Below are positions 3,186 through 63,733 of a DNA stretch of 64,000 nucleotides, one piece after another. The notes under the pieces were generated by a model that was not told where the DNA came from, did no database searches, and worked only from the letters and a program-made list of their open reading frames with translations. This stretch comes from Eubacteriales bacterium (GTDB lineage: Bacteria > Bacillota > Clostridia > Oscillospirales > JAAYXM01). How positions within the stretch are numbered: position 1 is the first letter of the stretch; every line of letters begins with the position of its first letter. A program made the position numbers and the translations under genes. The stretch lies in NCBI GenBank assembly GCA_045636205.1, contig JAZTXE010000084.1, positions 8,893 to 72,892 of the forward strand, written 5' to 3'.

Positions 3186-4303
3186 AAGACGTAACCGGAA
3201 TTATACTTGCTCAAGACCGTTGCGACGCAATGCGTGAGCTCACCAACGACAGAACAGTTGCTTCAGTACCGTTTGGCGGAAGATACCGTCTTATTGATTT
3301 TGCTCTGTCTAACCTTGTTAATGCAGGGGTTCGCGATGTAGGCGTAGTTACAAAGAGCAATTACTATTCGCTTATGGATCATATAGGTTCCGGCAAGGAA
3401 TGGGATTTAAACCGTAAAAAAGGTGGGCTTTCAATTCTCCCACCATCCGTTGGAACAATGCCAGGCGGCCTCCAGCCTAATGCCGGAAAAATAGAAGCTC
3501 TGCACGGGATAATAAACTATATCCGCAACTGCAGAAGCAAGTATGTAATCGTCACCGACGCAAACATAGTTGCAAATATTGATTACAATGAAATGCTCGA
3601 ATACCACATAGAAAAGCATGCATATATGACGGTTCTGTACCAGAAAGATGTTTTCGAGCAAAGCAGATTCCGTGATAATACATTTCTGCAGATTAACGAC
3701 GAAGGTCGAATAACAGACGTTGCAATTAACCAGACTATCCAACTGCACAGCAATATGCTTTTGGGTACGTTTATTATTGAGCGCGAGCTTTTGGATTTCC
3801 TTATAAGTCAGTGCACCGCTCACAACCGCTTGAGCTTTGAGCGCGACATCATTCAGGATATGTGCAATGACCTTGATATCTATGCGTATTGTTATGAAGG
3901 CTATGTTGAGAAGGTTGACTCTGTAGATACCTTCAGAAAAACGAATATGGATTTACTTGATCCTGCCGTAAGAAACGAGCTTTTCCGAAACGGCGCAATA
4001 CTCACAAAAGTCCGTGACGAGGTTCCTACCTATTACGGAAGCCGTTCATATGTCGAAAATTCACTCATAGCCGACGGTTGCATAATAAAAGGTCGTGTTG
4101 AAAACTCGGTTATTTTTCGCAGCGTAATCGTCGAAGAAAATGCAGTTGTCAAAAATTCAATTATTATGCAGGATAGCAAAATTTTGCGCGGCGCTTTGGT
4201 CGAACACTGTATAACCGATAAAATGGTTACAGTGAGTGAAAACAGAACAATAGTCGGTGCAGAATCATATCCTGTGGTTCTGGCTAAAAATGCCGAAATC
4301 TAA
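3182..4303 (+). CDS. glgD: glucose-1-phosphate adenylyltransferase, GlgD regulatory subunit
   Basis: GlgC paralog that keeps [16 protein letters not shown] but lacks the GGxGxRL loop. ATGA start/stop overlap with glgC. This position is typical of Firmicute glg operons. Confidence 0.88.
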
Positions 4304-13555: not shown

Positions 13556-14335
13556 TTAGTTTTCTATGTAATTTGCAAGCAGATTATCCATGTTATAAAG
13601 TCCAGGCACGGTTATACCTGCAATATAAACAGCCGCTTTAACAGCTCCTGCTGCAAAAACTTCGCGGGATTGCGCAGTGTGCTTTATTTCAATAACCTCA
13701 TCACGTCCTGCGAAAATAACCTCATGCTCACCGACGATTGTACCGCCGCGAAGCGTATGGATACCAACTTCGTTGCGTCCGCGTTTTTGACGAACCGAAT
13801 GGCGGTCATAAACATACTCAGCTTTATAGGGAAGTGCTTCGCTCAAACGCTCAGCCAGCATGAGTGCGGTTCCGCTCGGTGCGTCCAACTTCTGATTGTG
13901 ATGACGCTCTATTATCTCGACATCAAAAGTATCGCCGAGAATTTTTGCAGCGCGCTCAACAAGCATCTGAAGCACATTAATTCCAAGGGACATATTTCCT
14001 GAGCGGAAAAGTGCTACTTTCTTTGAAGCTTTTTCAATCTCGGATATCTGCTCTTCGGAATGACCGGTAGTTGCAATAACCGCAGGGATGTTTTTTGAAA
14101 TCGAATAATCAAGAATTCCCTCCAAAAGGGAAGGATGCGAAAAGTCGATTACAACATCCGCATCTTCTTTTACGGCAGCAATGCTGTCATAAACCGGGTA
14201 TCCGAAAAGCGCCTGGGTATTTATATCAACTCCCGCAACGATTTCCGTATCCATATTCTTTTGGCAAATATCTGTTATCACACGCCCCATGCGGCCATTA
14301 CAGCCGGAGAGAATGATTTTTATCATTGGTTTCAC
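13556..14335 (-). CDS. dapB: 4-hydroxy-tetrahydrodipicolinate reductase
   Basis: 259 aa with N-terminal GCNGRMG Rossmann motif and ERHHNQKLDAPSGTA, the DapB signature. Confidence 0.92.
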   Translation of the reverse strand: MKPMIKIILSGCNGRMGRVITDICQKNMDTEIVAGVDINTQALFGYPVYDSIAAVKEDADVVIDFSHPSLLEGILDYSISKNIPAVIATTGHSEEQISEIEKASKKVALFRSGNMSLGINVLQMLVERAAKILGDTFDVEIIERHHNQKLDAPSGTALMLAERLSEALPYKAEYVYDRHSVRQKRGRNEVGIHTLRGGTIVGEHEVIFAGRDEVIEIKHTAQSREVFAAGAVKAAVYIAGITVPGLYNMDNLLANYIEN

Positions 14336-14360: not shown

Positions 14361-15254
14361 TTATACTGTCTTTATCCCCATATTCTGCATTGCTTCTTTA
14401 AGGATTTCTACGTTCTTAGGAGCCATCTCATAAAGCGGCATGCGCAGGTAACCGTTATCCATCCCCATGAGCTGCATTGCGGTTTTAATCGGAATCGGAT
14501 TCACCTCAATAAAGAGCTTATCCATAAGGTCAAAGTACTCAAGCTGAATCTTTTTGCTCTCCTCAGTTTTTCCTTCAAAATAAAGGCTGCACATTTTTGA
14601 TACAACACCAGGGAGAATGTTTGCAGCAACAGAGATAACACCCTTTGCACCCAGTGCAAGCATCGGTACTGTCTGGTCATCGTTTCCGCTCCACATGTAC
14701 CAATCATCTCCGCATAAGCTGAGTGTGTTGGCAATAAGAGTGAAATTACCGCTTGCTTCTTTTACGCCGTTTATATTCGGATGCTTCGAAAGCTCAAGAT
14801 AAGTCTCTGCAGTAAATGACACACCGGTACGAGAGGGAACGTTGTAGAGAATTATTGGTGTTTTAACACGGTCTGCAACATATGTATAGTGCTTGATAAG
14901 ACCGCGCTGAGTGGTCTTGTTATAGTAAGGGGTTACCATTAAAAGACCGTCAACACCTGCATCCTCTGCAAACTTTGAAAGCTCAAGTGCATAGCTTGTG
15001 TCATTGCTTCCGGTTCCTGCAATTACCGGAACACGGCCGGCAACTTTTTTTACGCAATATTTAATGAGCTCACAGTGCTCCTCATGGCTGAGTGTCGCAG
15101 ATTCACCGGTGGTTCCGCATACTGTGATTGCGTTTATTCCTCCGTCGATCTGAAAATCCACCAATTTCCCGAAACGGTCAAAATCAATTTTCCCTTTTTC
15201 ATCAAAAGGTGTTACGATTGCTACGTTTGCGCCGGTAAAAACAGGTGACTTCAT
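14361..15254 (-). CDS. dapA: 4-hydroxy-tetrahydrodipicolinate synthase
   Basis: 297 aa with GTTGESATLSHEEH and YNVPSRTG motifs and the GVKEASG active-site lysine region. Confidence 0.93.
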   Translation of the reverse strand: MKSPVFTGANVAIVTPFDEKGKIDFDRFGKLVDFQIDGGINAITVCGTTGESATLSHEEHCELIKYCVKKVAGRVPVIAGTGSNDTSYALELSKFAEDAGVDGLLMVTPYYNKTTQRGLIKHYTYVADRVKTPIILYNVPSRTGVSFTAETYLELSKHPNINGVKEASGNFTLIANTLSLCGDDWYMWSGNDDQTVPMLALGAKGVISVAANILPGVVSKMCSLYFEGKTEESKKIQLEYFDLMDKLFIEVNPIPIKTAMQLMGMDNGYLRMPLYEMAPKNVEILKEAMQNMGIKTV

Positions 15255-15280: not shown

Positions 15281-16360
15281 TTAGTCAATATATCCTTCCG
15301 CACAGAGAAGCTCTGCAAGTAAGACTGCACCGCCTGCTGCGCCGCGTAAAGTATTGTGGGACAAGCAAACGAACTTAATGTCATACTGTGTGTCCGGACG
15401 CAGACGACCGACAGAAACTGCCATGCCGTTTTCTAAATTGCGATCCAGATTTGTCTGAGGTCTGTTATCCTCACGGAAGTAGTGAATAAACTGCTTGGGA
15501 GCAAGTGGGAGATTTAACTCCTGCGGACGTCCTTTGTAAGACTCCCAACGTGCGATTATCTCATCAAGCGGTATTTTCTTATCGAAGCTTGCACATACTG
15601 CTGCCATGTGACCGTCGGAAACCGGAACACGGATGCACTGAGCGGTAATGCTCGGAGAAGTTGCGTTAACGATACTTCCGTTTTCAACCGTGCCCCAAAT
15701 CTTCATCGGCTCCTGCTCAGACTTTTCTTCCTCGCCGCCGATATAGGGGATTACATTGTCAATCATCTCGGGCCAACGCTCAAAAGTTTTTCCTGCACCG
15801 GAAATAGCTTGATAAGTGCAAGCGAGAACCTTGGTTATACCAAGATCCATAAGCGGATGGATTGCCGGCACATAACTCTGGAGTGAGCAGTTGGATTTAA
15901 CAGCTACAAATCCACGATTTGTTCCCAGGCGCTTACGCTGTGACTCAATAACCTTTGCATGATCTGCGTTTATTTCCGGAATAATCATCGGAACATCAGG
16001 AGTTCCGCGATGAGCACTGTTGTTTGAAACAACCGGGCACTCAGCTTTTGCATACTTTTCTTCAAGTGCACGGATTTCGTCCTTTTTCATATCAACTGCG
16101 CAGAATACAAAATCAACCATTCCGGCAATTTTTTCGACATCTGCAGAAGCGTCCATAACAACAAGCTTTTTCATTGCCTCCGGGATAGGGGATGTCATCG
16201 CCCATCTTCCGCTTACAGCTTCCTCGTAAGTTTTGCCTGCCGAGTTTGCACTTGCAGCGATAGCTGTAACCGTAAACCACGGATGATTTTCAAGAAGCGT
16301 TGCAAAACGCTGACCAACCATTCCCGTGCCGCCTATAATTCCGACCTTGTAATTTTTCAT
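15281..16360 (-). CDS. asd: aspartate-semialdehyde dehydrogenase
   Basis: 359 aa with N-terminal GGTGMVGQRF and the active-site cysteine context SNCSLQS. Sits first in an operon with dapA and dapB. Confidence 0.9.
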   Translation of the reverse strand: MKNYKVGIIGGTGMVGQRFATLLENHPWFTVTAIAASANSAGKTYEEAVSGRWAMTSPIPEAMKKLVVMDASADVEKIAGMVDFVFCAVDMKKDEIRALEEKYAKAECPVVSNNSAHRGTPDVPMIIPEINADHAKVIESQRKRLGTNRGFVAVKSNCSLQSYVPAIHPLMDLGITKVLACTYQAISGAGKTFERWPEMIDNVIPYIGGEEEKSEQEPMKIWGTVENGSIVNATSPSITAQCIRVPVSDGHMAAVCASFDKKIPLDEIIARWESYKGRPQELNLPLAPKQFIHYFREDNRPQTNLDRNLENGMAVSVGRLRPDTQYDIKFVCLSHNTLRGAAGGAVLLAELLCAEGYID

Positions 16361-16499: not shown

Positions 16500-16732
16500 T
16501 ATAATAGAGAAAAGCGGTTTAGTGTCGGCTTTCGCGCAAAACTCTTTTTCATTACAAATAACAGATAGCTCTTCATCAAATAACAGATGACAGTTGCATG
16601 GCTGTTAACCATACACCCAGATCGACACGCTGACCGGAAGCGATCGTCTTCGGCGGTAAACCCTTTCACGATACCTTATAGAGCTCCGGAGCTCTAAGTA
16701 ACGCTACTGATGAGTGCCGCGCCTCTACCTAA
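16500..16732 (-). promoter_or_regulatory. lysine riboswitch (L-box) leader of asd-dapA-dapB
   Basis: The minus strand reads AGGTAGAGGCGCGGCACTCATCAGTAGCG...GTGAAAGGG...CGCCGAAG...CTGGG...ACTGTCA. This matches the conserved L-box blocks recalled from the B. subtilis lysC leader (AGAGGxGC, GAAAGGGG, GCCGAAG, CTGG, TGTCA). Confidence 0.85.
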
Positions 16733-16852
16733 ACTATATTTCCTTTTGCTCATAATATATCATTTGTTTTAAATTCTGTCAACACTAAATCAGTCAATAG
16801 TGCCCATTTTGGTGCATTTTCATACAAAGCATGGAAACGGAGTGCCTTTTTT

Positions 16853-18592
16853 ATGAGAAAAATAGTCAATTTTATGATATTAACAATACTTGGAGCATGC
16901 ATGTTTTTTATGCAGGCAGTCGCTGCTGCAGAAGCTAACCCGACTGTCAGGGTAGGTTTGTATTATAACACCACGGCTCTTATAACCGCAAATCTCCAGA
17001 ATAAAGTAGGTTACGGTTACCGCTTAGGATTCTTTGACAGTCAGGGGAACTTTATAAACATATGGTCGGTTGATAGTACCAACAAGATAACTATGGGAAA
17101 AGACCAGAATCTGTATTATAAGGACAATACGTTCTATACTACTAATGCGCCTGAGGGCAGCCGTTCTCTTGGTGCATACCATGTGCAGTTTGATACCCCT
17201 TACGCAAACGCTCAGCTCGCCGAAGCTGCATTGAATCAAATGCTCGCAAAAGGTGTCCCTGGGTTTGTAAGCTATATAAACGGGGCATATTATATTCGTA
17301 CTGGTTCTTTTACAACTCAAGCCGCTGCAAGTACAGCAGCACTTCAGTATATAAACATTGGTACGGCTACGGCGGTCGGCGCAGGACACACGTGCGTGAC
17401 CGTCTACAGTACAGAAACCGGTGCAATTCTTTTTGAATTTGAATCAGGTGTGAATGTACCTCTGTCCGTTTATCCGTCACTGGGAGAGGTAGATGACCCG
17501 CTTACCTGGTTTAAAGGTTATCAGTATCGCGGTGCATTTGAGTACATAAGAAATGGCGGTAATATTTCGGTTATAAACCGTGTTTCAATGCAGGACTACG
17601 TCAAGGGTGTGGTTCCTTACGAAATGTCCGCCTCATGGCCAATAGAAGCCCTGAAGGCTCAAGCGATGTGTGCACGTACATATGCCTACTCCAATTTTGG
17701 AAAGCACGGCTCGGATTTCGATATTTGCGCATCAACGCATTGTCAGGTTTACCACGGTGCAAACTCTGCAACCGAAAATTCAGACACGGCAGTAGAGCAA
17801 ACCTATGGTCAGTATATTTTATACAATGGTGAGCCGATAAATGCAGTATTCCATTCATCCAACGGCGGTGCTACAGAAGATGCAGAAAACGTCTGGGGAT
17901 ATGCAACCCCGTATTTGCGCGGAGTTTACGATAACAATGAGGACCTTGACCGCGCGACAAACGGTCGCTGGTCATTTGAATATACGCCCGCGCAGCTTCA
18001 ATCAATCCTCAATTCCAAGGGTTACTCAGCCGCGCTTATATCCGATGCATACGTTGAAGAATATACAAGCAAAGGAAACGTCAAAAAAGTAACCTTTATT
18101 GACGTAAACGGTGAAAGGTACAGCTTCTCGAAAGAGAAAGCGCGTACTATAATAAACAGCTCATCACTAAAAAAATACACGCACAGTCAGCGTTATAAAA
18201 TTACCCGAAAAGGTGCACAAGCGAGTCAGAACCACACTTCAAGCGGCGCTTCGCTTTACGTAAATAATGCTTCTACTGCGCTTGACCCGTTAAGCGGGGA
18301 TATTTCCGTAATAACCGGAAGTGGCGCAATGGGACTTCTACCGTCAACGTCAGTTTATGTGCAAACCGCATCCGGAAAAGAGCTCATAACATTTGCAGAT
18401 AATTCATCAGATGACAATGCCACCGAAACACCTCAAGCAAACAATGATGTAACCTTTGTTTTCACCGGCACAGGTTGGGGGCACAATGTAGGCTTAAGTC
18501 AGATCGGAGCTCTTGGAATGGCAAACAACGGCTACTCCGCCGAAGATATTATCCATTTTTATTACACTGATGTTACTATAACCGAAGCATGA
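16853..18592 (+). CDS. spoIID: SpoIID/LytB-domain protein (lytic transglycosylase for engulfment)
   Basis: Signal peptide, then the SpoIID-domain hallmarks [32 protein letters not shown] and HSSNGGATE. Confidence 0.8.
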
Positions 18593-20803: not shown

Positions 20804-20832
20804 TTGTAAATTCTTTCCGTTACAGATATAAT
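20804..20832 (+). promoter_or_regulatory. sigma-A type promoter upstream of yajC
   Basis: TTGTAA (20804-20809), a 17-nt spacer, then TATAAT (20827-20832). Confidence 0.55.
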
Positions 20833-20865: not shown

Positions 20866-21237
20866 ATGCAGATGTTAGCATTTCTTACAGGCGAGGCAGC
20901 GCAGGGCAGTGCCGGGTCAAGCATTATGGCATTCCTGCCGATCATCCTTGTATTCGTTGTTTTCTACTTTTTCCTTATCCGTCCGGAAAAAAAGCGCAAT
21001 AAACAAACCGCTGAGATGCGAAATAATCTCAAGGTTGGCGATGAAATTGTAACCATTGGCGGAATCATCGGAAAAATCACAAACATCAAAGAAGAGCAGC
21101 TCACCATTGAAACCGGTGCTGACCGCAACAAGGTCCGCATTATGCGTTGGGCAGTAAGTGCACCGATTGCAAAGGAAGAGGCCAAGGCTGTTAAAGAAGC
21201 TGAAAATGACGCAGTAAGCGACGCTTCCGAAGAATAA
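20866..21237 (+). CDS. yajC: preprotein translocase subunit YajC
   Basis: Single TM segment followed by FFLIRPEKKRNKQ and GDEIVTIGGIIGKI. Conserved queA-tgt-yajC order. Confidence 0.88.
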   Translation: MQMLAFLTGEAAQGSAGSSIMAFLPIILVFVVFYFFLIRPEKKRNKQTAEMRNNLKVGDEIVTIGGIIGKITNIKEEQLTIETGADRNKVRIMRWAVSAPIAKEEAKAVKEAENDAVSDASEE

Positions 21238-21320: not shown

Positions 21321-21737
21321 ATGCAAAAACGTGAAGAAGTACCGAATAAGTTTTCTAAAATCCCGATTTTATTTTTCATCTACGGAATTATAGGTGTTTT
21401 AATCGGTGTAGTATTGCTTTTACCGGTATCTTTTCTTTCGGCAAATGATCTTATACCGGAAGGCATTGTTTCATCATTTCCGGTTGTCGCGGTTTTTATT
21501 GGCGCGGTTGTTTCCGGCTATTTCTCAGCACGGTCAATGGGCAAAGCTTTGCTTACCGGTCTTATTCAATCAATAGTAAACTTTTTAATCTTATATCTTT
21601 TAGGTGTTTTAGTCTTCATGAGGATTAAACCCACCGGTTTTTACTTGTATGTATTTCTTGCCTGTGTTTTAGGCGCGGTTATCGGTTGTCTTCTTACGGT
21701 TATAAACGTTAAAGGCCATCGTCGCCGCAATACATAA
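21321..21737 (+). CDS. TIGR04086-like polytopic membrane protein
   Basis: 138 aa with four predicted TM segments. From memory, this family accompanies SCIFF loci in Clostridia. Confidence 0.6.
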   Translation: MQKREEVPNKFSKIPILFFIYGIIGVLIGVVLLLPVSFLSANDLIPEGIVSSFPVVAVFIGAVVSGYFSARSMGKALLTGLIQSIVNFLILYLLGVLVFMRIKPTGFYLYVFLACVLGAVIGCLLTVINVKGHRRRNT

Positions 21738-21779
21738 GGCAGATGCAGAATATAAATTACAAAAGGAGAGTGTTTTACA

Positions 21780-21923
21780 ATGAAACATGTTAAGACAATC
21801 AATACTGCGGTTTTAAAGAACAGCGCTGCTAAGGGCGGCTGCGGTGAGTGCCAGACTTCTTGCCAGTCCGCTTGCAAGACCTCCTGCACTGTTGCAAACC
21901 AGAAGTGCGAAAACCGTAAATAA
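21780..21923 (+). CDS. scfA: six-cysteine ranthipeptide precursor SCIFF
   Basis: Hand-translated 47-aa ORF absent from the ORF track: MKHVKTINTAVLKNSAAKGGCGECQTSCQSACKTSCTVANQKCENRK. AGGAGA RBS lies 8 nt upstream. The GGCGECQTSCQSACKTSCTV core is the SCIFF signature. Confidence 0.9.
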   Translation: MKHVKTINTAVLKNSAAKGGCGECQTSCQSACKTSCTVANQKCENRK

Positions 21924-21955
21924 AAATTTTAACGCGTAGAAAAAAACCATAAAAA

Positions 21956-21990
21956 ACGGATTACTGCGCTGCGGTAATCCGTTTTTCTTT
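21956..21990 (+). terminator. hairpin terminator/attenuator between scfA and scfB
   Basis: Stem ACGGATTAC(TGC) / (GCG)GTAATCCGT spanning 21956-21982, followed by TTTTTCTTT. Confidence 0.75.
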
Positions 21991-22017
21991 GTGGGAAAAG
22001 ATGGAGGTATATCCGCT

Positions 22018-23376
22018 ATGGTACATACATATCGTTTAGGCGGTTATAACATAGCAGTTGATGTAAACAGCGGTGCAGTACATGCACTCAGCGATGTTGC
22101 ATTCGACGTATTGGAAAGAATCGAAAAGCCTGAAAACGAAAAATGCCCGGAGAGTGTTATCGGCAAGCTTTCTTCAAAATACACCAGGCAAGAGATAGAG
22201 AATGCTTACGAGGAGCTTACTGAGCTCTGTGAGAACGGACTTTTATTTGCAGATGATGACTATGTGGATTTAACACGTGCGCTTCCGCAAAACAGCCCTT
22301 TAAAAGCACTGTGTCTGCACATTGCTCACGATTGCAATTTGCGTTGTTCGTATTGCTTTGCTTCTACCGGTGATTTTGGAAAAGGCAGAAAGCTTATGCC
22401 GCCGGAGATTGCAAAAAAAGCCATTGATTTTGTTATTAAGCGTTCTCAAAATCGCCACAATATAGAAATTGACTTTTTTGGCGGTGAACCGCTCATGGCA
22501 TTTGACACGGTAAAAGAAACCGTTAAATACGCAAAAAAACAAGCGGAGATACATGGCAAGACCTTCCGCTTTACACTTACTACGAACGGCGTAGGTCTTA
22601 ATGATGAGATAACCGAATATATAAATTCCGAGATGTCCAACATTGTTTTGTCGCTCGACGGCCGACGTGAGGTAAATGACCGCATGCGCAAAACCGTAAA
22701 CGGGCAGGGAAGTTATGATATAATTGTTCCCAAGTTTAAAAAGTTAGTCGATGCACGCGATAAGGACAAGGATTATTACGTACGCGGAACGTTCACGCGT
22801 GAAAATTTAGATTTTGTTGACGATGTTCTGCATATCGCAGATATGGGCTTTGACCAGCTTTCAATCGAGCCGGTAGTCACTGACGAGGGTTGTTCTTATG
22901 CAATTACAAGCGCTGATAAAGAGCGCATTGAAAAAGAGTATGAAAAGCTTGCCGAGATAATGAAAGACAGACGCGACTTTAATTTCTTCCACTTTGCGGT
23001 TGATTTAAAACAAGGTCCGTGTGTATATAAAAGGATCCGCGGATGCGGAGCAGGGTATGAGTACGCTGCAATAACCCCTGATGGCGACGTATATCCATGC
23101 CATCAGTTTGCAGGAAAAGAAGAATACTGCATGGGAAATGTCGAGGATGACACGTTTGATACTGAAATTTCAAAAGAATTTTCGCAGTATAATATTTACA
23201 CGCGCGAAGCGTGCAAAAGCTGCTGGGCACGTTTCTATTGCAGTGGCGGATGCAGTGCGGCAAACCTGAACATGAACAATGACATGGCGGTGCCTTATGA
23301 GCTGGGGTGTGAGCTTGAGCGCAAGCGTTTAGAATGCGCAATTATGCTAAAGGTTCATGACGCACTGAAAGACTAA
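22018..23376 (+). CDS. scfB: radical SAM/SPASM thioether-forming SCIFF maturase
   Basis: CNLRCSYC (CxxxCxxC) radical-SAM cluster motif and a C-terminal SPASM cysteine array (CGAG...PCHQF...CKSCWARFYCSGGC). ATG 22018 follows a GGAGG RBS; the in-frame GTG at 21991 overlaps the terminator. Confidence 0.9.
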   Translation: MVHTYRLGGYNIAVDVNSGAVHALSDVAFDVLERIEKPENEKCPESVIGKLSSKYTRQEIENAYEELTELCENGLLFADDDYVDLTRALPQNSPLKALCLHIAHDCNLRCSYCFASTGDFGKGRKLMPPEIAKKAIDFVIKRSQNRHNIEIDFFGGEPLMAFDTVKETVKYAKKQAEIHGKTFRFTLTTNGVGLNDEITEYINSEMSNIVLSLDGRREVNDRMRKTVNGQGSYDIIVPKFKKLVDARDKDKDYYVRGTFTRENLDFVDDVLHIADMGFDQLSIEPVVTDEGCSYAITSADKERIEKEYEKLAEIMKDRRDFNFFHFAVDLKQGPCVYKRIRGCGAGYEYAAITPDGDVYPCHQFAGKEEYCMGNVEDDTFDTEISKEFSQYNIYTREACKSCWARFYCSGGCSAANLNMNNDMAVPYELGCELERKRLECAIMLKVHDALKD

Positions 23377-23398: not shown

Positions 23399-23920
23399 AT
23401 GCAGATTTTGTCCTACATTTTAAGTATTACAGGTTTAGCCTGTATGATTGCCGCATCCTTGATAAAAGGCAGTAACATGAAAAAAATTCTGTTCTTCGTA
23501 TTTTGCGGAAACGTACTTGTTGCAACCAGCTATCTGATAGGCGGAAGCGGTATAAACGGAGCTGCAGCCTGTTATCTGGGTGGACTTCAGTCGATTATAA
23601 ACTATTTTTTTCAATCCAAGGGGAAACCTCTTCCTAAATGGCTGATTACGTCTTACGCAATCGCAATAATAGCACTTAACATTGCGGTAAGCGGTCTTTC
23701 TCCACTTGGAATTCTTGTAATCATCGCATCACTGACCTTTATTATGTGCATAGGTCAGACAAACGGAACCAAGTACCGTTTTTGGACAATTGTAAACATG
23801 GTTTTGTGGTGTACATATGACATTTTGTCAGCATCCTACAGCGCACTTTTAACGCACGTAGCATTACTTTCGTTTACGGTTGCAGGAATGATAATACACG
23901 ATAGAAAAAAAGAAATTTAG
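23399..23920 (+). CDS. YgjV-family inner membrane protein
   Basis: 173 aa with five or six TM segments and a YgjV-like repeat organisation. Weak assignment made from memory. Confidence 0.5.
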   Translation: MQILSYILSITGLACMIAASLIKGSNMKKILFFVFCGNVLVATSYLIGGSGINGAAACYLGGLQSIINYFFQSKGKPLPKWLITSYAIAIIALNIAVSGLSPLGILVIIASLTFIMCIGQTNGTKYRFWTIVNMVLWCTYDILSASYSALLTHVALLSFTVAGMIIHDRKKEI

Positions 23921-23928
23921 CATCAACA

Positions 23929-23972
23929 AAGAGCAGGGTAATCGTTTGTCCGATTACTTCTGCTCTTTTTTG
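23929..23972 (+). terminator. intrinsic terminator (partly bidirectional)
   Basis: Long interrupted stem AAGAGCAGGGTAATCG / CGATTACTTCTGCTCTT followed by TTTTTT. Confidence 0.8.
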
Positions 23973-24803: not shown

Positions 24804-26000
24804 TCAGTTATCTTCACGGAGTGCGGTTATTGGGTCAAGCTTTGATGCTGAAATTGCAGGTAAAACCGCAAAAATAATTCCGCAAAAAATCGCCACTGCT
24901 TCAACAATAATCAAATTCTTTATGGAAAAGCTGAATTTCATATTTAAAAGATTTAATATTAACACTGAAATTCCCAGTCCTGATATTCCGCCTATGACTC
25001 CTCCGATTGCAGATATGAGCGCAGACTCCGCCAAGAAACACATTGTAATATCTCTCCTTCTCGCACCTATAGCCATACAAATGCCTATCTCCTTTTTACG
25101 CTCTCCTGCGCTTGAAAGAGTTGTATTCATTATTCCTAAACCGCTTACGCAAAGCGAAATTGCAGCTATTGCACTCAAAAGCAATCCTATAAGGCTTACA
25201 ATGGACTTGAGGCTATTCACATGCCCGGTTAAATTTTCGGTTGAATATCCGTCTTTTGTGTTATTCTCACGGTTTAACAGTTCAACCGCTTTTTGGCCGA
25301 TTTTTTCTGACGGCAACTCACTCATACAATTAATTGCTATTTGGTCGATATCATACGTTGCCGTCATTTGATTTGCCGTTGTGTATGGTATATACATAAA
25401 ATCAGGTATCATTCCTCCGCTAATTTGATTTATTCCATCTTTTTGTGATGAAATAATACCTATAATTTCAAATTTTTCACTTTGAGTGCCTATGGTTAAA
25501 ACTATGTTTTTGCCAACTATATTTTCACGCATATATACTTTTTTTGCCAATTCACTGTCAACTACTGCAACATTCTTCTTAAAACGCACATCTGTTTCAT
25601 TTGGCAAACGGCCGAACAACAAATCCAGCGTCATAACATTGCTTATTCCGTCGTCTATACCCCAAATAACGGTATCTCCGTTTGTGTTCTTTATGCGGTA
25701 ACTTCCATACTCGACCACAAGTGGTAAAACATCGGATATTTCCGGGATTTTTTCTTTTATTTTCTGCACGTCTTCTATTGTAAGCGGCATTGTTTCAACA
25801 TTTTTTGAATACAATGTCATTCCGTGTATGCCCAATTTATCCAATTCGTCTGAAATCGCCTGCTGCCCGCTGTCACTCATCGAGACAATAAGTACGACAG
25901 ATGCAACTCCGATTGCAATTGACATGGCGGTAAGCCATGTTCTCATTCGGTTTGTGCGAAGGTTTTTAGCACCTATTATAAAAATGTCACCGATGAACAT
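24804..26000 (-). CDS. MacB/FtsX-type ABC transporter permease (no fused ATPase)
   Basis: 398 aa. N-terminal TM segment, a large extracytoplasmic MacB-like domain, then three C-terminal TM segments of FtsX type (GERKKEIGICMAIGARRRDI). Confidence 0.82.
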   Translation of the reverse strand: MFIGDIFIIGAKNLRTNRMRTWLTAMSIAIGVASVVLIVSMSDSGQQAISDELDKLGIHGMTLYSKNVETMPLTIEDVQKIKEKIPEISDVLPLVVEYGSYRIKNTNGDTVIWGIDDGISNVMTLDLLFGRLPNETDVRFKKNVAVVDSELAKKVYMRENIVGKNIVLTIGTQSEKFEIIGIISSQKDGINQISGGMIPDFMYIPYTTANQMTATYDIDQIAINCMSELPSEKIGQKAVELLNRENNTKDGYSTENLTGHVNSLKSIVSLIGLLLSAIAAISLCVSGLGIMNTTLSSAGERKKEIGICMAIGARRRDITMCFLAESALISAIGGVIGGISGLGISVLILNLLNMKFSFSIKNLIIVEAVAIFCGIIFAVLPAISASKLDPITALREDN

Positions 26001-26009
26001 AGCTCTTAC

Positions 26010-27038
26010 CTATCCCCTTACCTCTTTAATTTTATCACCGTGTTTTAACTGCACCGTTGGAGATAAAACAATTTTTTCTCTACCGCTTAAACCATGTGTT
26101 ACTTCAATTTCATTGTCTAATTCAAGGCCTGTTGTAATGTTTTTTTTGTATACAACACCGTTTTTTATAACAAAAAGCGATTCATTGTTTTTATCATCCT
26201 GTAAAATACAATTGTACGGCACGGTAACCGCTGATTTTTTCTTTTGGGTATATATCTTTGCGTTTACGCTGTACCCCGGCTTTAATCCGCCGTCAGGGTT
26301 TGTTATACTGATTAACGTATCCACAACCGTTTCTCCGCTACCGGTAAGCGATGATTTCTTTGTTGCGGTAGGATAAATTTTTTCTACTTTTCCACGGTAA
26401 GTTTTTGCAAACGCATCACCGGTTATATCTACGTCCTGCCCTTTTTTTATTCTGTTTATATATAATTCAGGTATTTGAACACGCACATATAGCTTACTTA
26501 AATCGGAAATCACCGCTGCTGCACGGTAGCTTGATATAGTACTGTTTTCTTTAGCATCAAGTTTTGTTACCACTCCGGATATAGGGCTTGTTATTGCGCT
26601 CTGAGTTTGCTGTTGTGACGCATTAAACGCAGGAAGTATCTGTCCCAAATATTCTTCCGGGTCAATTCCATATTGTTTCATAAGTAATTCAATAGCTTCA
26701 TACTCACTTTCGGATACCTCAGGGATGAGTGCTGATATATCTGCAATAGACTGACGTGACGGTTGGATAACATCAAAAAGAACCTGTCCGGCTTCTACGC
26801 TATCGCCTACTTCTATATAGACATCTTTTACATGCGAAGATGCCACAACACGTATTTCACGTGCGTCTCCGTCTTCTACACTTCCCTTTGATATTACACT
26901 GTCGTAAATATCCTTAATTTCCGGATTTACGGCTGATACGCTTATCGGAGGCTTACTGTTAAATGATGGTGATGAAAACCACATGACAAAGATTATGAGT
27001 ACGGTGGTAGCTATTGCGAAAAAACTTTTGTTTTTCAA
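26010..27038 (-). CDS. HlyD/MacA-type periplasmic adaptor (membrane fusion) protein
   Basis: 342 aa. N-terminal TM anchor, a lipoyl-like hairpin (GDSVEAGQVLFDV ... SGVVTKLD) and beta-barrel segments typical of efflux adaptor subunits. Confidence 0.78.
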   Translation of the reverse strand: MKNKSFFAIATTVLIIFVMWFSSPSFNSKPPISVSAVNPEIKDIYDSVISKGSVEDGDAREIRVVASSHVKDVYIEVGDSVEAGQVLFDVIQPSRQSIADISALIPEVSESEYEAIELLMKQYGIDPEEYLGQILPAFNASQQQTQSAITSPISGVVTKLDAKENSTISSYRAAAVISDLSKLYVRVQIPELYINRIKKGQDVDITGDAFAKTYRGKVEKIYPTATKKSSLTGSGETVVDTLISITNPDGGLKPGYSVNAKIYTQKKKSAVTVPYNCILQDDKNNESLFVIKNGVVYKKNITTGLELDNEIEVTHGLSGREKIVLSPTVQLKHGDKIKEVRG

Positions 27039-27293: not shown

Positions 27294-27371
27294 CCTTATT
27301 TAAATCCGTTACGGCATAAAGAAATATAATATTCATATAATGCTAATGGTTGATTTAAGGGAGCGATGTGT

Positions 27372-27812
27372 ATGGCATATTCTGACAGAGAGCTTTTGGC
27401 CAGATTAGTTCAATGCGAAGCCGGAGGTGAAGGAGAAAACGGAATGAGAGCTGTGGCAAGTGTTGTTATGAACCGCGTATATGCTCCGGGCGGTGAATAT
27501 GCACGAACCGGACGCCAAAGCATAAGGAATATTATATTTCAGCCCGGGCAGTTTGTTTGCGCAATGGAAACCGTGGGCGGCGAATATAATCCGCAAAATA
27601 TTTATAATATGCGTCCCGAAGCTATCCATTACGCGGTGGCGGATTGGGCAATTGCCGGAAACCGCTTATCGAGCCTTGGCAGCGCGTTGTGGTTTTTTAA
27701 TCCCTATTCCCCTGTTTGTCGTCAGAACTTTCCAAGTGAGGTAGGATATTTTGTCACACGTGTCGGCGAGCATTGCTTTTATAATCCGACCAATGCATAT
27801 TACCAAACTTAA
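27372..27812 (+). CDS. cwlJ: spore cortex-lytic cell wall hydrolase, CwlJ/SleB catalytic-domain family
   Basis: LLARLVQCEAGGEG..GMRAVASVVMNRV and QPGQF motifs (Hydrolase_2). It is followed by gerQ, as in Bacillus. ATG 27372 is better spaced from the AAGGGAG RBS than ATG 27366. Confidence 0.8.
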   Translation: MAYSDRELLARLVQCEAGGEGENGMRAVASVVMNRVYAPGGEYARTGRQSIRNIIFQPGQFVCAMETVGGEYNPQNIYNMRPEAIHYAVADWAIAGNRLSSLGSALWFFNPYSPVCRQNFPSEVGYFVTRVGEHCFYNPTNAYYQT

Positions 27813-52160: not shown

Positions 52161-52196
52161 AAAAAACTGTTGCAGTAAAACTGCAACAGTTTTTTT
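52161..52196. terminator. bidirectional terminator
   Basis: Stem CTGTTGCAG / CTGCAACAG flanked by AAAAAA and TTTTTTT. Confidence 0.85.
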
Positions 52197-52563
52197 AGCT
52201 TCCAAAATCCTCTAAAATCATACTCAATGCTTCATCGCCGTAAACGGTTATTCCCTGCTCTAATAAATCCTGGTCATATCTCCTGAGCGATTCTACATAT
52301 ATCTCCGTTGTTTTAACAGGCTCCTCCATATTTACAGGATTAAAAACCGCAAGTTTTCCGTCCTGGCTTTTAACAAGATATCCGTTTTCTTCTCCTACAT
52401 TCTCCTCCGCTTCAGGGATATTCTCCGTACTGCTGTTTACTATATAAACCTTATTTTCTTTCTCTTTTTCAGCACTCTCTCTTAAAGATGTTATTCCGCT
52501 TATCAGCACTGCAAACATACTGAATAAACAACACGCTGAAATTATTACACGTTTATTATCCAT
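52195..52563 (-). CDS. membrane-anchored protein with BofC C-terminal-like domain
   Basis: N-terminal TM anchor. The C-terminal GYLVKSQDGKLAVF...P...I.V..L...D...L..GI pattern resembles the BofC C-terminal domain. Weak assignment. Confidence 0.45.
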   Translation of the reverse strand: MDNKRVIISACCLFSMFAVLISGITSLRESAEKEKENKVYIVNSSTENIPEAEENVGEENGYLVKSQDGKLAVFNPVNMEEPVKTTEIYVESLRRYDQDLLEQGITVYGDEALSMILEDFGS

Positions 52564-62365: not shown

Positions 62366-63733
62366 TTACACATTAAAATCAATGTGTATCTCTTCGTCTT
62401 TTATTATAATCTTATTTATCAAAGATTTCAAGATAGTCTGCCGTTCTCTAAGGTCTGCATGCTCCCATATCGACGGTAGATTTTTTGCTAATGTCTGCAA
62501 TCTCTCCCTGTCTTTTTCACTTTTTCTGTATTCTCCCTCCTTTTTTATTTGCATTTCGATTTTTTCTAGCTGCTTCTTTTGCTCGTTTATTGTTTCAAGC
62601 AGTATATCGTCATCTTTATCAGAAACCGCATACAAATTGAGTAATTTCTTTATGCTTGCAGCTATTTTATTTTTTTGCGCCTCTAATAGTTGCTGCACGT
62701 TTTGAGCTTTGTCTGTACTTTTGTCCTCCTTTAATTCGCTCATTTTGATATTTAGCATTGTATCAATCACTATCCGCTCTACATCTTCGGCCCATAACTT
62801 TTCTTGCGGACAGTTTTCATCTTTTACCAAATATTCTCTGTTAGAACCTTGTGTTGAATAACATATTAACTTATCTTTACCGTTCCCCCATTTTTGATAT
62901 CTGAAACGAGCTCCGCAATGACCACAATATAGTAAACCGGTAAGTAATTTTGTACCATATGAATGTATATTGCTTTTGCGTCTCTCCATCATTTCCATTG
63001 TTCTGTAAAAAACTTCTTCGCTCACTATGGGTTCATGTTTGCCTTTATACTCCTCCCCATTGTACTCAATAATGCCAATGTTTGTTTTCCTTCTTAAAAT
63101 TTGGATACATAATCGCTCATACTTAAGCCCCAGCATTTTCGCTATAGAGTTTGTCGAAAAGCCTTGCAGGTATAAGTCATACATCTGCCGTACCATTTCA
63201 GCATCCTCATTAGGCACCAGAACCCCCTCATTTTGGTCGTAATCATATCCGAACGGAATTCTTCCTCCTCCCATCCAAAGTCCGGATTTCACCCTTTCTT
63301 TCATGCCCATGCGGGTACGCTCTCTTATATTCTCTCTTTCAAGCTGAGCAAAGGCTGATAATATACCTATCATAAGTCTGCCCATGGGAGTGGATGTGTC
63401 AAGATTTTCGTTAATTGATACGAAATCAACATTGTGAGAATTAAACACATCTTCAATTAAGTACAAGGTATCTTTTTGCGAACGAGATAATCTATCAAGC
63501 TTATAAACTATACAGTGGCTTATCTTCCCCTTTTTACACATGTCAATAAGTCGCTTTATTTCCGGTCTGTCTAAGTTACTGCCGGACCACCCTCCGTCTA
63601 TAAAAAATTCATAATTTTTTATTTGCTTCATTTTGCAATAAGCTTCCAACGCCTCTTTCTGAGCATCGATGGAATATCCTTCTTCTGCCTGAAAGTCAGT
63701 TGATACACGAATATATATAGCCGGTATTTTCAT
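62366..63733 (-). CDS. large serine recombinase (SpoIVCA / phage integrase type)
   Basis: 455 aa. Resolvase catalytic domain with AIYIRVSTDFQ (nucleophile serine) and YKLDRLSRS, a recombinase domain, a zinc ribbon (CGHCGARF...C), and a long C-terminal coiled coil. GAGGTGA RBS. Confidence 0.9.
   Translation of the reverse strand: MKIPAIYIRVSTDFQAEEGYSIDAQKEALEAYCKMKQIKNYEFFIDGGWSGSNLDRPEIKRLIDMCKKGKISHCIVYKLDRLSRSQKDTLYLIEDVFNSHNVDFVSINENLDTSTPMGRLMIGILSAFAQLERENIRERTRMGMKERVKSGLWMGGGRIPFGYDYDQNEGVLVPNEDAEMVRQMYDLYLQGFSTNSIAKMLGLKYERLCIQILRRKTNIGIIEYNGEEYKGKHEPIVSEEVFYRTMEMMERRKSNIHSYGTKLLTGLLYCGHCGARFRYQKWGNGKDKLICYSTQGSNREYLVKDENCPQEKLWAEDVERIVIDTMLNIKMSELKEDKSTDKAQNVQQLLEAQKNKIAASIKKLLNLYAVSDKDDDILLETINEQKKQLEKIEMQIKKEGEYRKSEKDRERLQTLAKNLPSIWEHADLRERQTILKSLINKIIIKDEEIHIDFNV

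Follow-up and report, generated by a model that had tools for sequence, protein, structure and literature searches.

We analysed a 64,000-nucleotide stretch of contig JAZTXE010000084.1 from an uncultured gut Eubacteriales bacterium (GenBank assembly GCA_045636205.1), hereafter called the window, and concentrated on a short region of it that an initial annotation, made from the sequence alone, had described as a SCIFF ranthipeptide locus. At this locus the Sec translocon accessory gene yajC is followed, on the same strand, by a gene for a small hydrophobic protein resembling TIGR04086/DUF3792, by scfA, which encodes a peptide precursor with six cysteines, by a terminator-like hairpin, and by scfB, which encodes a radical S-adenosylmethionine (SAM)/SPASM enzyme (Table 1). 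We refer to the hydrophobic-protein gene, scfA and scfB as the module; yajC is a conserved upstream neighbor of the module and no part of it.

Table 1. Features at the SCIFF locus; positions are counted from the first nucleotide of the window.
Feature	Position	Strand	Basis
Promoter-like site TTGTAA-17 nt-TATAAT, 5' of yajC	20804..20832	+	10/12 consensus match
yajC, Sec translocon accessory subunit	20866..21237	+	TIGR00739 89.4 bits (cut-off 44.2), PF02699 105 bits
TIGR04086/DUF3792-like small hydrophobic protein, 138 aa	21321..21737	+	near-threshold matches; recurrent first gene of the module
scfA Shine-Dalgarno AGGAGA	21764..21769	+	10 nt 5' of ATG, sequence inspection
scfA, 47-aa SCIFF precursor	21780..21923	+	ATG start, TIGR03973 and PF13165 matches
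Terminator-like hairpin between scfA and scfB	21956..21990	+	folding
scfB Shine-Dalgarno GGAGG	22003..22007	+	10 nt 5' of ATG 22018, sequence inspection
scfB, 452-aa SCIFF maturase	22018..23376	+	TIGR03974, CteB alignment
YgjV-like inner-membrane protein	23399..23920	+	PF10688 38.9 bits; 22 nt 3' of scfB
Terminator-like inverted repeat between convergent ygjV-like and Amidase_6 genes	23936..23959	both	consensus match only

The precursor gene had been reported as an open reading frame (ORF) missing from the ORF track, with its extent abbreviated to 21780-23 and its peptide quoted. An ORF listing with a floor of 30 residues returned exactly that peptide, MKHVKTINTAVLKNSAAKGGCGECQTSCQSACKTSCTVANQKCENRK, as the translation of scfA. 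The default floor of the lister is 60 residues, and the 47-residue frame appeared once this floor was lowered; its absence from the track is probably a length-threshold artefact. The gene is not missing from public data, as the identical peptide (100% identity) is a called, Pfam-annotated gene in four public contigs, for example in the metagenome-assembled genome (MAG) GCA_045652405.1. A 60-residue floor in ORF tracks hides precursors of RiPPs (ribosomally synthesized, post-translationally modified peptides), and Haft's group has already remarked that SCIFF precursor genes are overlooked through their small size (PMC5300114). The ribosome-binding site that had been called strong lies 10 nt from the ATG, and GGAG-type motifs are found at the equivalent position in homologous scfA loci.

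ScfA was readily assigned to a family with profile hidden Markov models (HMMs). TIGR03973 ("six-cysteine ranthipeptide SCIFF") matched residues 2-44, corresponding to model positions 1-43 of 43, with 81.9 bits against a cut-off of 50 (E = 2e-23), and PF13165 scored 84.9 bits against a cut-off of 27. The initial annotation had proposed the precursor search, and that for the maturase, under accession numbers that both proved right. The cysteines of ScfA are residues 21, 24, 28, 32, 36 and 43 of 47, a spacing that fits the SCIFF pattern C-x2-C-x3-C-x3-C-x3-C-x6-C and bears out the six-cysteine core that had been recognized by eye; threonines occupy positions 34 and 37, and it is residues of this set to which the CteA and Tte1186a cross-link has been ascribed. 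With the leader/core border carried over from CteA (PMC6231123), the leader comprises residues 1-18 (MKHVKTINTAVLKNSAAK) and the core residues 19-47 (GGCGECQTSCQSACKTSCTVANQKCENRK). SCIFF is the name given to the family, which numbers 5,966 clusters at 90% identity, by both NCBI and JGI. Many database entries are 58-82 residues long as opposed to the usual ~46-48. In the long entries that we inspected (L006 5772-5924, L008 5774-5923 and L011 5662-5886, from the comparison loci described below), an in-frame start codon further upstream accounts for the added residues, and inside the longer frame is the conserved MKH… start with a GGAG of its own; the longer entries are probably start-codon miscalls.

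Homologous loci (designated by L numbers) were collected for comparison, 12 being fetched through ScfB and 16 through exact look-up of ScfA variants. The nearest relative was a gut Eubacteriales MAG (L001/L013) with 96% identity in ScfB and 100% in ScfA, and the next ScfB relatives, from Oscillospiraceae, Flintibacter and Ruminococcus-like genomes, showed 57-62% identity. A 12-residue segment of the ScfA core, SCQSACKTSCTV, was identical in all 17 homologous loci compared. The 36 nucleotides that encode it differed at 2-10 positions, and every one of these differences was a synonymous third-position change. Likewise, when the scfA of the window was compared with those of the four nearest relatives, 4-6 codons differed synonymously and 0 non-synonymously. 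A core that changes only synonymously indicates that the scfA peptide is translated and strongly constrained, and by this comparative measure ScfA is a translated product under purifying selection.

The enzyme gene was examined in the same way. The mechanically called scfB frame begins at GTG 21991, directly after the T-run of the hairpin. We placed the start at ATG 22018 instead, because the TIGR03974 match and the alignment with CteB both begin there and GGAGG precedes it. The stop codon of scfA is then 94 nt from the scfB start, in agreement with the rule that every ScfA has a ScfB no more than 500 bp away (PMC5300114). ScfB matched TIGR03974 ("thioether cross-link-forming SCIFF peptide maturase") with 667.2 bits against a cut-off of 425 (E = 1e-200). 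The exception model NF040492 ("not_ScfB", for ScfB-like orphans) gave 575.1 bits, below its cut-off of 855, and the other maturase models also stayed below their cut-offs (PapB 282.6 bits with a cut-off of 340, the QhpD-type model TIGR03906 248 bits, anSME 113 bits). Pfam domains PF04055 (Radical_SAM), PF13353 (Fer4_12) and PF13186 (SPASM, 37.8 bits) were detected, and TIGR04085 matched the SPASM domain with 69 bits.

The CxxxCxxC motif and SPASM cysteine array that had been noted in the enzyme could both be located. The radical-SAM CX3CX2C motif is C106-N-L-R-C110-S-Y-C113 (nt 22333-22356) and aligns with HDCNLRCKYC of CteB. The SPASM region covers approximately residues 335-440 (nt 23020-23337) and contains C343x12Gx4C361 and C399x2C402x5C408x3C412, together with C431. 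Residues 1-95 align without large gaps, at the level of sequence, with the N-terminal domain of CteB, which the crystal structure shows to have the fold of a RiPP recognition element (RRE; PMC6231123), and this part of ScfB is accordingly a predicted leader-binding RRE.

The best-characterized counterpart of the pair is CteA/CteB of Clostridium thermocellum ("thermocellin"; PDB 5WGG and 5WHY), which has the same two-gene architecture and falls under the same family models. CteB (5WGG chain A) aligned with ScfB over residues 1-447 (E = 9.5e-166) with the same RRE/radical-SAM/SPASM layout. The cluster ligands of CteB are C104/C108/C111 for the radical-SAM cluster, C344/C362/C413 for auxiliary cluster 1 and C400/C403/C409/C432 for auxiliary cluster 2 (PMC10177961), and all ten are matched in ScfB, by C106/C110/C113, C343/C361/C412 and C399/C402/C408/C431, respectively. 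On the precursor side, the CteA 21-mer (5WGG chain B) is recognizably the same as the ScfA leader, and Cys32 and Thr37 occupy the same positions in the two precursors; the published CteA cross-link is a Cys32-Thr37 thioether (PMC8326336). The systems differ in their hosts, a thermophilic cellulolytic clostridium and an uncultured gut Eubacteriales bacterium, and in substitutions in the leader and the C-terminal tail (…CENRK in the window), but no functional motif differs between them. A homologous SCIFF pair, Tte1186a/Tte1186 of Caldanaerobacter subterraneus, resembles the window pair through shared family membership, and the cysteine ligand set of Tte1186 is also present in ScfB. Tte1186a acquires a single Cys-Thr thioether, and a substrate cysteine binds auxiliary cluster 1 of the enzyme (PMC10177961). 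Compared with ScfA of Clostridium sensu stricto, the window peptide differs on both sides of the invariant segment, with GGCGECQTSC… in place of PGCKECANSC… before it and …VANQKCE in place of …VANLACE after it.

SCIFF peptides are assigned to the ranthipeptides, that is, to peptides with non-alpha linkages (PMC8326336). PapB, which matures PapA to freyrasin in Paenibacillus polymyxa, is a homologous radical-SAM/SPASM maturase of ranthipeptides, and its cluster ligands follow the pattern found in ScfB (PMC10177961). It installs six Cys-Asp links, to C-beta, in CX3D repeats, whereas the window core contains neither CX3D nor any Asp; we therefore rejected membership of the PapB subfamily, in view of these absent repeats and the PapB model score below cut-off. 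A resemblance of the ScfA core to the epoxyqueuosine reductase QueG (PDB 5D6S) was also discarded, as it was not significant (E = 0.14) and most likely reflects ferredoxin-like cysteine spacing only. This resemblance is a curious one, given that queA and tgt lie just upstream of the module.

The hairpin between scfA and scfB has a stem of 12 pairs, one of them G-U, formed by 21956-21967 and 21971-21982 around the loop 21968-21970. TTTTTCTTT follows the stem from 21983, and an A-run lies on its 5' side. Its folding energy was -30.3 kcal/mol (z = -4.8), and 0 of 200 shuffled sequences were as stable. Under a strict rule, in which A-T pairs are trimmed off the stem, 13 of 17 loci have a hairpin after scfA, and three further loci had strong but imperfect hairpins, giving 16 of 17; the only locus without one has a spacer of just 20 nt. 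The hairpin sequences are unrelated between loci, indicating that structure and position are the conserved parts. A simple terminator scanner did not report the hairpin between scfA and scfB of the window, which folding and the trimming rule reveal, probably because extension of the stem by A/T pairs consumes the T-run. In the uncultured Firmicutes MAG locus L004, the scfA-scfB spacer is 601 nt, against 76-235 nt in the other hairpin-bearing loci, and a 168-residue ORF (3551-4057, +) lies between the hairpin and scfB; its product matches nothing in Pfam and is rich in Cys at the C-terminus (…CPRHNTLLTWFGCHICNN).

Scanning revealed no promoter-like site between the hairpin and scfB, where the gap is ~35 nt, and expression of scfB therefore probably depends on read-through past the hairpin. 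The hairpin would probably terminate or stabilize most transcripts after scfA, leaving the precursor in large excess over the enzyme. Its conservation suggests attenuation or transcript stabilization as the means by which a high precursor-to-enzyme ratio is set. Lantibiotic and sactipeptide operons commonly carry partial terminators behind the structural gene, and such an arrangement is ordinary RiPP operon design. Judging from the anatomy of the region, scfA and scfB probably share one transcription unit with the TIGR04086-like gene, and perhaps with yajC too. The promoter-like site upstream of yajC is a possible start of such a yajC-TIGR04086-scfA-scfB unit. Its 3' end is likely the inverted repeat at 23936-23959, which can form a 9-pair stem on the forward and a 7-pair stem on the reverse strand; the YgjV-like gene is probably co-transcribed with scfB here.

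The gene preceding scfA had been described as TIGR04086-like. The window protein itself falls marginally short of that family, with 29.4 bits against a cut-off of 30, and it also scored below the cut-off of PF12670 (27.6 versus 31.3 bits), which is recorded as "weak" for a 92%-identical orthologue in public precomputed annotation. Its positional counterparts nevertheless uphold the description: of the ten genes that occupy this position in L002-L011, eight exceed the TIGR04086 cut-off (35-99 bits), and PF12670 is recorded for the gene 5' of scfA in L017-L025. The membrane proteins at this position align colinearly and are similar in size and hydrophobic profile, with only 13-23% identity. Because the family is so diverged, a tblastn search with the window protein found the near-identical MAG alone, and the counterparts were recovered by ORF extraction and HMM search.

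Across the comparison loci, scfA and scfB were adjacent in every case examined. The order queA-tgt-yajC-(TIGR04086/DUF3792)-scfA-scfB was observed in Oscillospiraceae-like genomes, Flintibacter, Clostridium arbusti, C. lundense and Ruminiclostridium, and yajC was found 5' of the module in L001-L008, L010, L011 and L020-L025. Flintibacter and Oscillospiraceae LBM23126 are culturable relatives with this module. A Christensenellaceae locus retains yajC and the module, and queA and tgt were not found there. Directly 3' of scfB, secD-secF follow in C. lundense, C. arbusti, an uncultured Clostridium and Lachnospirales, and in Ruminiclostridium secDF lie two genes beyond scfB (module to secDF: L006 5363-9520, L007 5289-9642, L010 5349-9664, L017 4506-9063, L023 4517-10141). 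Most of the loci followed by secDF also have yajC before the module, indicating that in those lineages the module sits within an ancient tgt-yajC-secDF cluster. secDF do not come next after scfB in the window or in Oscillospiraceae-like loci. In our literature search, which did not extend to the founding paper of Haft and Basu (2011), no paper paired SCIFF with yajC, secD, tgt or queA.

A different context was seen in L026-L028 (5001-6615), human-gut metagenome loci carrying ScfA variant P0056. There scfA-scfB are preceded by cysS, a gene with a Ribonuclease_3 domain, a transketolase gene and a GNAT gene; the gene after them, on the opposite strand, encodes a large protein with an SLH domain. 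Neither a DUF3792 gene nor yajC was found at these loci, and the membrane protein is therefore not obligatory.

Downstream of scfB, the window carries genes for the YgjV-like protein, an Amidase_6 protein and an HlyD/MacB-permease pair, an arrangement that it shares only with the near-identical MAG. The YgjV-like gene was considered as a fourth member of the system and rejected, since it stands 3' of scfB only in L001/L013 and not in L002-L011 or L017-L028. The HlyD/YknX-type adaptor gene (26010-27038) and the MacB-type FtsX permease gene (24804-26000), 9 nt apart on the reverse strand, were likewise considered as the missing exporter (24804-27038). This candidate was also rejected: the pair lies 1.4 kb 3' of scfB, on the opposite strand and beyond the terminator-like site, and it is absent from SCIFF loci except L001/L013. 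No ABC ATPase gene lies between or beside the two genes, either in the window or in L001/L013. Adaptor, ATPase and permease usually form a trio, as in yknXYZ of Bacillus subtilis, and it is the middle gene that is missing from the window pair. No conserved protease, exporter, immunity gene or receptor/sensor kinase was found at the SCIFF locus in the sampled lineages, nor does the window contain another RiPP gene, a peptidase-containing ATP-binding cassette exporter or a second maturase. The remark in the initial annotation that no dedicated protease or exporter gene is adjacent thus holds, the nearby MacB/HlyD pair not being conserved in more distant SCIFF loci, and such a lack is typical for the family.

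Together, these results are best explained by a canonical SCIFF ranthipeptide precursor/maturase pair with a thioether mechanism, to which we assign a probability of about 0.93. Gene identity, family membership, the conserved catalytic cysteines, purifying selection on the peptide and the conservation of gene order and hairpin all bear on this identification, and each was observed directly. By analogy with the homologues, the chemistry would proceed as follows. Translation of scfA would yield the 47-residue precursor, whose leader (residues 1-18) would dock as a beta-strand and extend the beta-sheet of the N-terminal RRE domain of ScfB. The radical-SAM [4Fe-4S] cluster, bound by C106/C110/C113, would reductively cleave SAM, and the resulting 5'-deoxyadenosyl radical would abstract a hydrogen from the acceptor threonine side chain in the core. 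The open iron of auxiliary cluster 1 (C343/C361/C412) would hold the donor cysteine as its thiolate. A thioether would then form, most likely between Cys32 and Thr37 at C-gamma, as in CteA/CteB and with Tte1186a/Tte1186 as a further parallel. The second electron would leave through the auxiliary clusters, with auxiliary cluster 2 (C399/C402/C408/C431) as its presumed carrier. ScfB is accordingly a putative catalyst of Cys-to-Thr thioether formation on ScfA, and the position of the cross-link is predicted from the same relatives.

Nothing weighs against the identification itself, and the caveats concern the mechanism. The acceptor residue is disputed, being Thr37 in vitro and Thr34 on co-expression in Escherichia coli, and cross-linking of the other five cysteines in the native product is unsettled (PMC8326336). 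Moreover, the cysteine bound to auxiliary cluster 1 in the CteB crystal is not the cross-linking one (PMC10177961). At the level of expression, the role of the hairpin, whether in attenuation or RNA stabilization, is deduced from anatomy, and the promoter call is no better than chance, the scan having given 11 sites where shuffled sequences lead one to expect 9.6.

Two alternatives would take the locus out of the SCIFF thioether scheme. One holds that the 47-codon frame is a chance intergenic ORF and that the radical-SAM enzyme acts elsewhere, as an anaerobic sulfatase maturase (anSME), as a maturase of quinohemoprotein amine dehydrogenase or as an orphan enzyme resembling ScfB. The frame is indeed short, spurious minus-strand ORFs overlap scfA, and ScfB does match the related maturase models (NF040492 575, PapB 283, TIGR03906 248 and anSME 113 bits). 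However, every one of these matches is below cut-off and TIGR03974 alone passes its own; the peptide passes two independent curated models and has a ribosome-binding site, its core diverges purely synonymously over 17 loci, and the scfA-scfB pair is adjacent everywhere examined, so that this explanation is effectively refuted. The other takes the product for a classical sactipeptide with C-alpha thioethers, secreted as an antimicrobial and serving as a bacteriocin against competitors. In its first description CteB was called a sactisynthase, and thermocellin was the name given to its product (PMC6231123), and genome-mining tools list SCIFF loci among bacteriocin/RiPP clusters. We nevertheless regard this as very improbable. 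The core does not vary between orders of Clostridia, among which the enzyme falls to 44-62% identity, there is at most one copy per genome with a near-universal distribution (bioRxiv 10.1101/2025.02.12.637840), and the locus lies in a housekeeping operon context with no conserved exporter, protease or immunity gene, all of which argues against a bacteriocin role. The wide spread of the family has itself been held to speak against an antimicrobial function, and the bond is to C-gamma, not C-alpha (PMC8326336).

What the modified peptide does in the cell is a separate matter, on which the canonical SCIFF identification can be combined with different views. For C. beijerinckii and C. ljungdahlii, the peptide has been proposed to serve as a signal, either extracellular or of cell density, by which sporulation, agr quorum sensing and metabolism are adjusted; this rivals only the physiological role and is compatible with the biosynthetic explanation. 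As summarized in PMC8102284, C. beijerinckii with disrupted precursor and radical-SAM genes showed strongly lowered sporulation gene expression and raised agr expression (Chen et al. 2020), the system is listed under "quorum sensing" in PMC8326336, and the window contains sporulation genes (SpoIID-like, PF07486 hydrolase and BofC). On the other hand, in none of the sampled lineages does the locus have a linked exporter, processing protease or receptor/sensor kinase, and the link to sporulation could not be made in C. ljungdahlii according to PMC8102284. We therefore treat signaling as a possible role, and tentatively so. The gene neighborhood points in another direction, namely to a housekeeping, envelope-associated and Sec-linked module whose peptide, with the TIGR04086-like protein as its partner, would work within or on the membrane and be no diffusible secondary metabolite. 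A TIGR04086/DUF3792 gene lies directly 5' of scfA in 10 of 12 distinct lineages, the module follows yajC in 10 sampled lineages, and secD-secF come after it in the several lineages named above; the core is invariant in protein while its codons drift, and no exporter, protease or receptor accompanies it. Adjacency is not function, however, and queA-tgt-yajC-secDF is an ancient cluster in which unrelated genes can settle. In addition, scfB is not followed by secDF in the window or in Oscillospiraceae-like loci, and one lineage has scfAB alone, between GNAT and SLH protein genes. We regard a Sec-linked function, which is argued from the gene neighborhood, as rather unlikely. In the accounts given by PMC8102284 and PMC8326336, the only genetic data on the role concern a signaling or regulatory effect on sporulation and agr genes in C. 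beijerinckii, and knockout phenotypes (sporulation, agr genes) are known only for the SCIFF members summarized in PMC8102284.

The canonical SCIFF pair of the window is of an already known and annotated kind, for which curated models, a crystal structure and enzymology have been published, and by itself it adds one more such pair from a gut clostridial MAG. The initial annotation had called the family described, widespread in Clostridia and poorly understood in its physiological role, which agrees with the literature (PMC8326336, PMC8102284, bioRxiv 10.1101/2025.02.12.637840). SCIFF systems are among the most widespread RiPP systems of gut and environmental Clostridia. The invariant core, the conserved hairpin, the recurrent membrane partner and the placement behind yajC and, in other lineages, ahead of secDF may help to frame experiments on their native structure and role.

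The surroundings of the locus are plain chromosome. The window includes a glycogen operon, tRNA-Gln, a lysine riboswitch with asd-dapA-dapB, and a SpoIID-like gene, queA, tgt and yajC, after which the module comes. Further along the window are genes for acetate kinase, tsf-rpsB, ftsH, hpt, tilS, dnaB, rplI, a GdpP-like phosphodiesterase, a penicillin-binding protein, groEL and others. The lysine riboswitch (16558-16735, -) scored 100.4 bits against a gathering score of 30 and lies 5' of the asd-dapA-dapB operon (15281-16360, 14361-15254 and 13556-14335, all -); L020-L022 share this neighborhood, with asd and dapA just before queA. Genes typical of spore formers are a SpoIID-domain gene directly 5' of queA (16853-18592, +), a PF07486 (Hydrolase_2) gene (27366-27812, +) and a BofC-like gene (52195-52563, -). 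The organism is probably a spore former, which bears on the link that has been reported between SCIFF and the expression of sporulation genes. Close to the right-hand end of the window, a gene for a large serine recombinase with Resolvase, Recombinase and Zn_ribbon_recom domains (62366-63733, -) may mark the edge of an integrated element.

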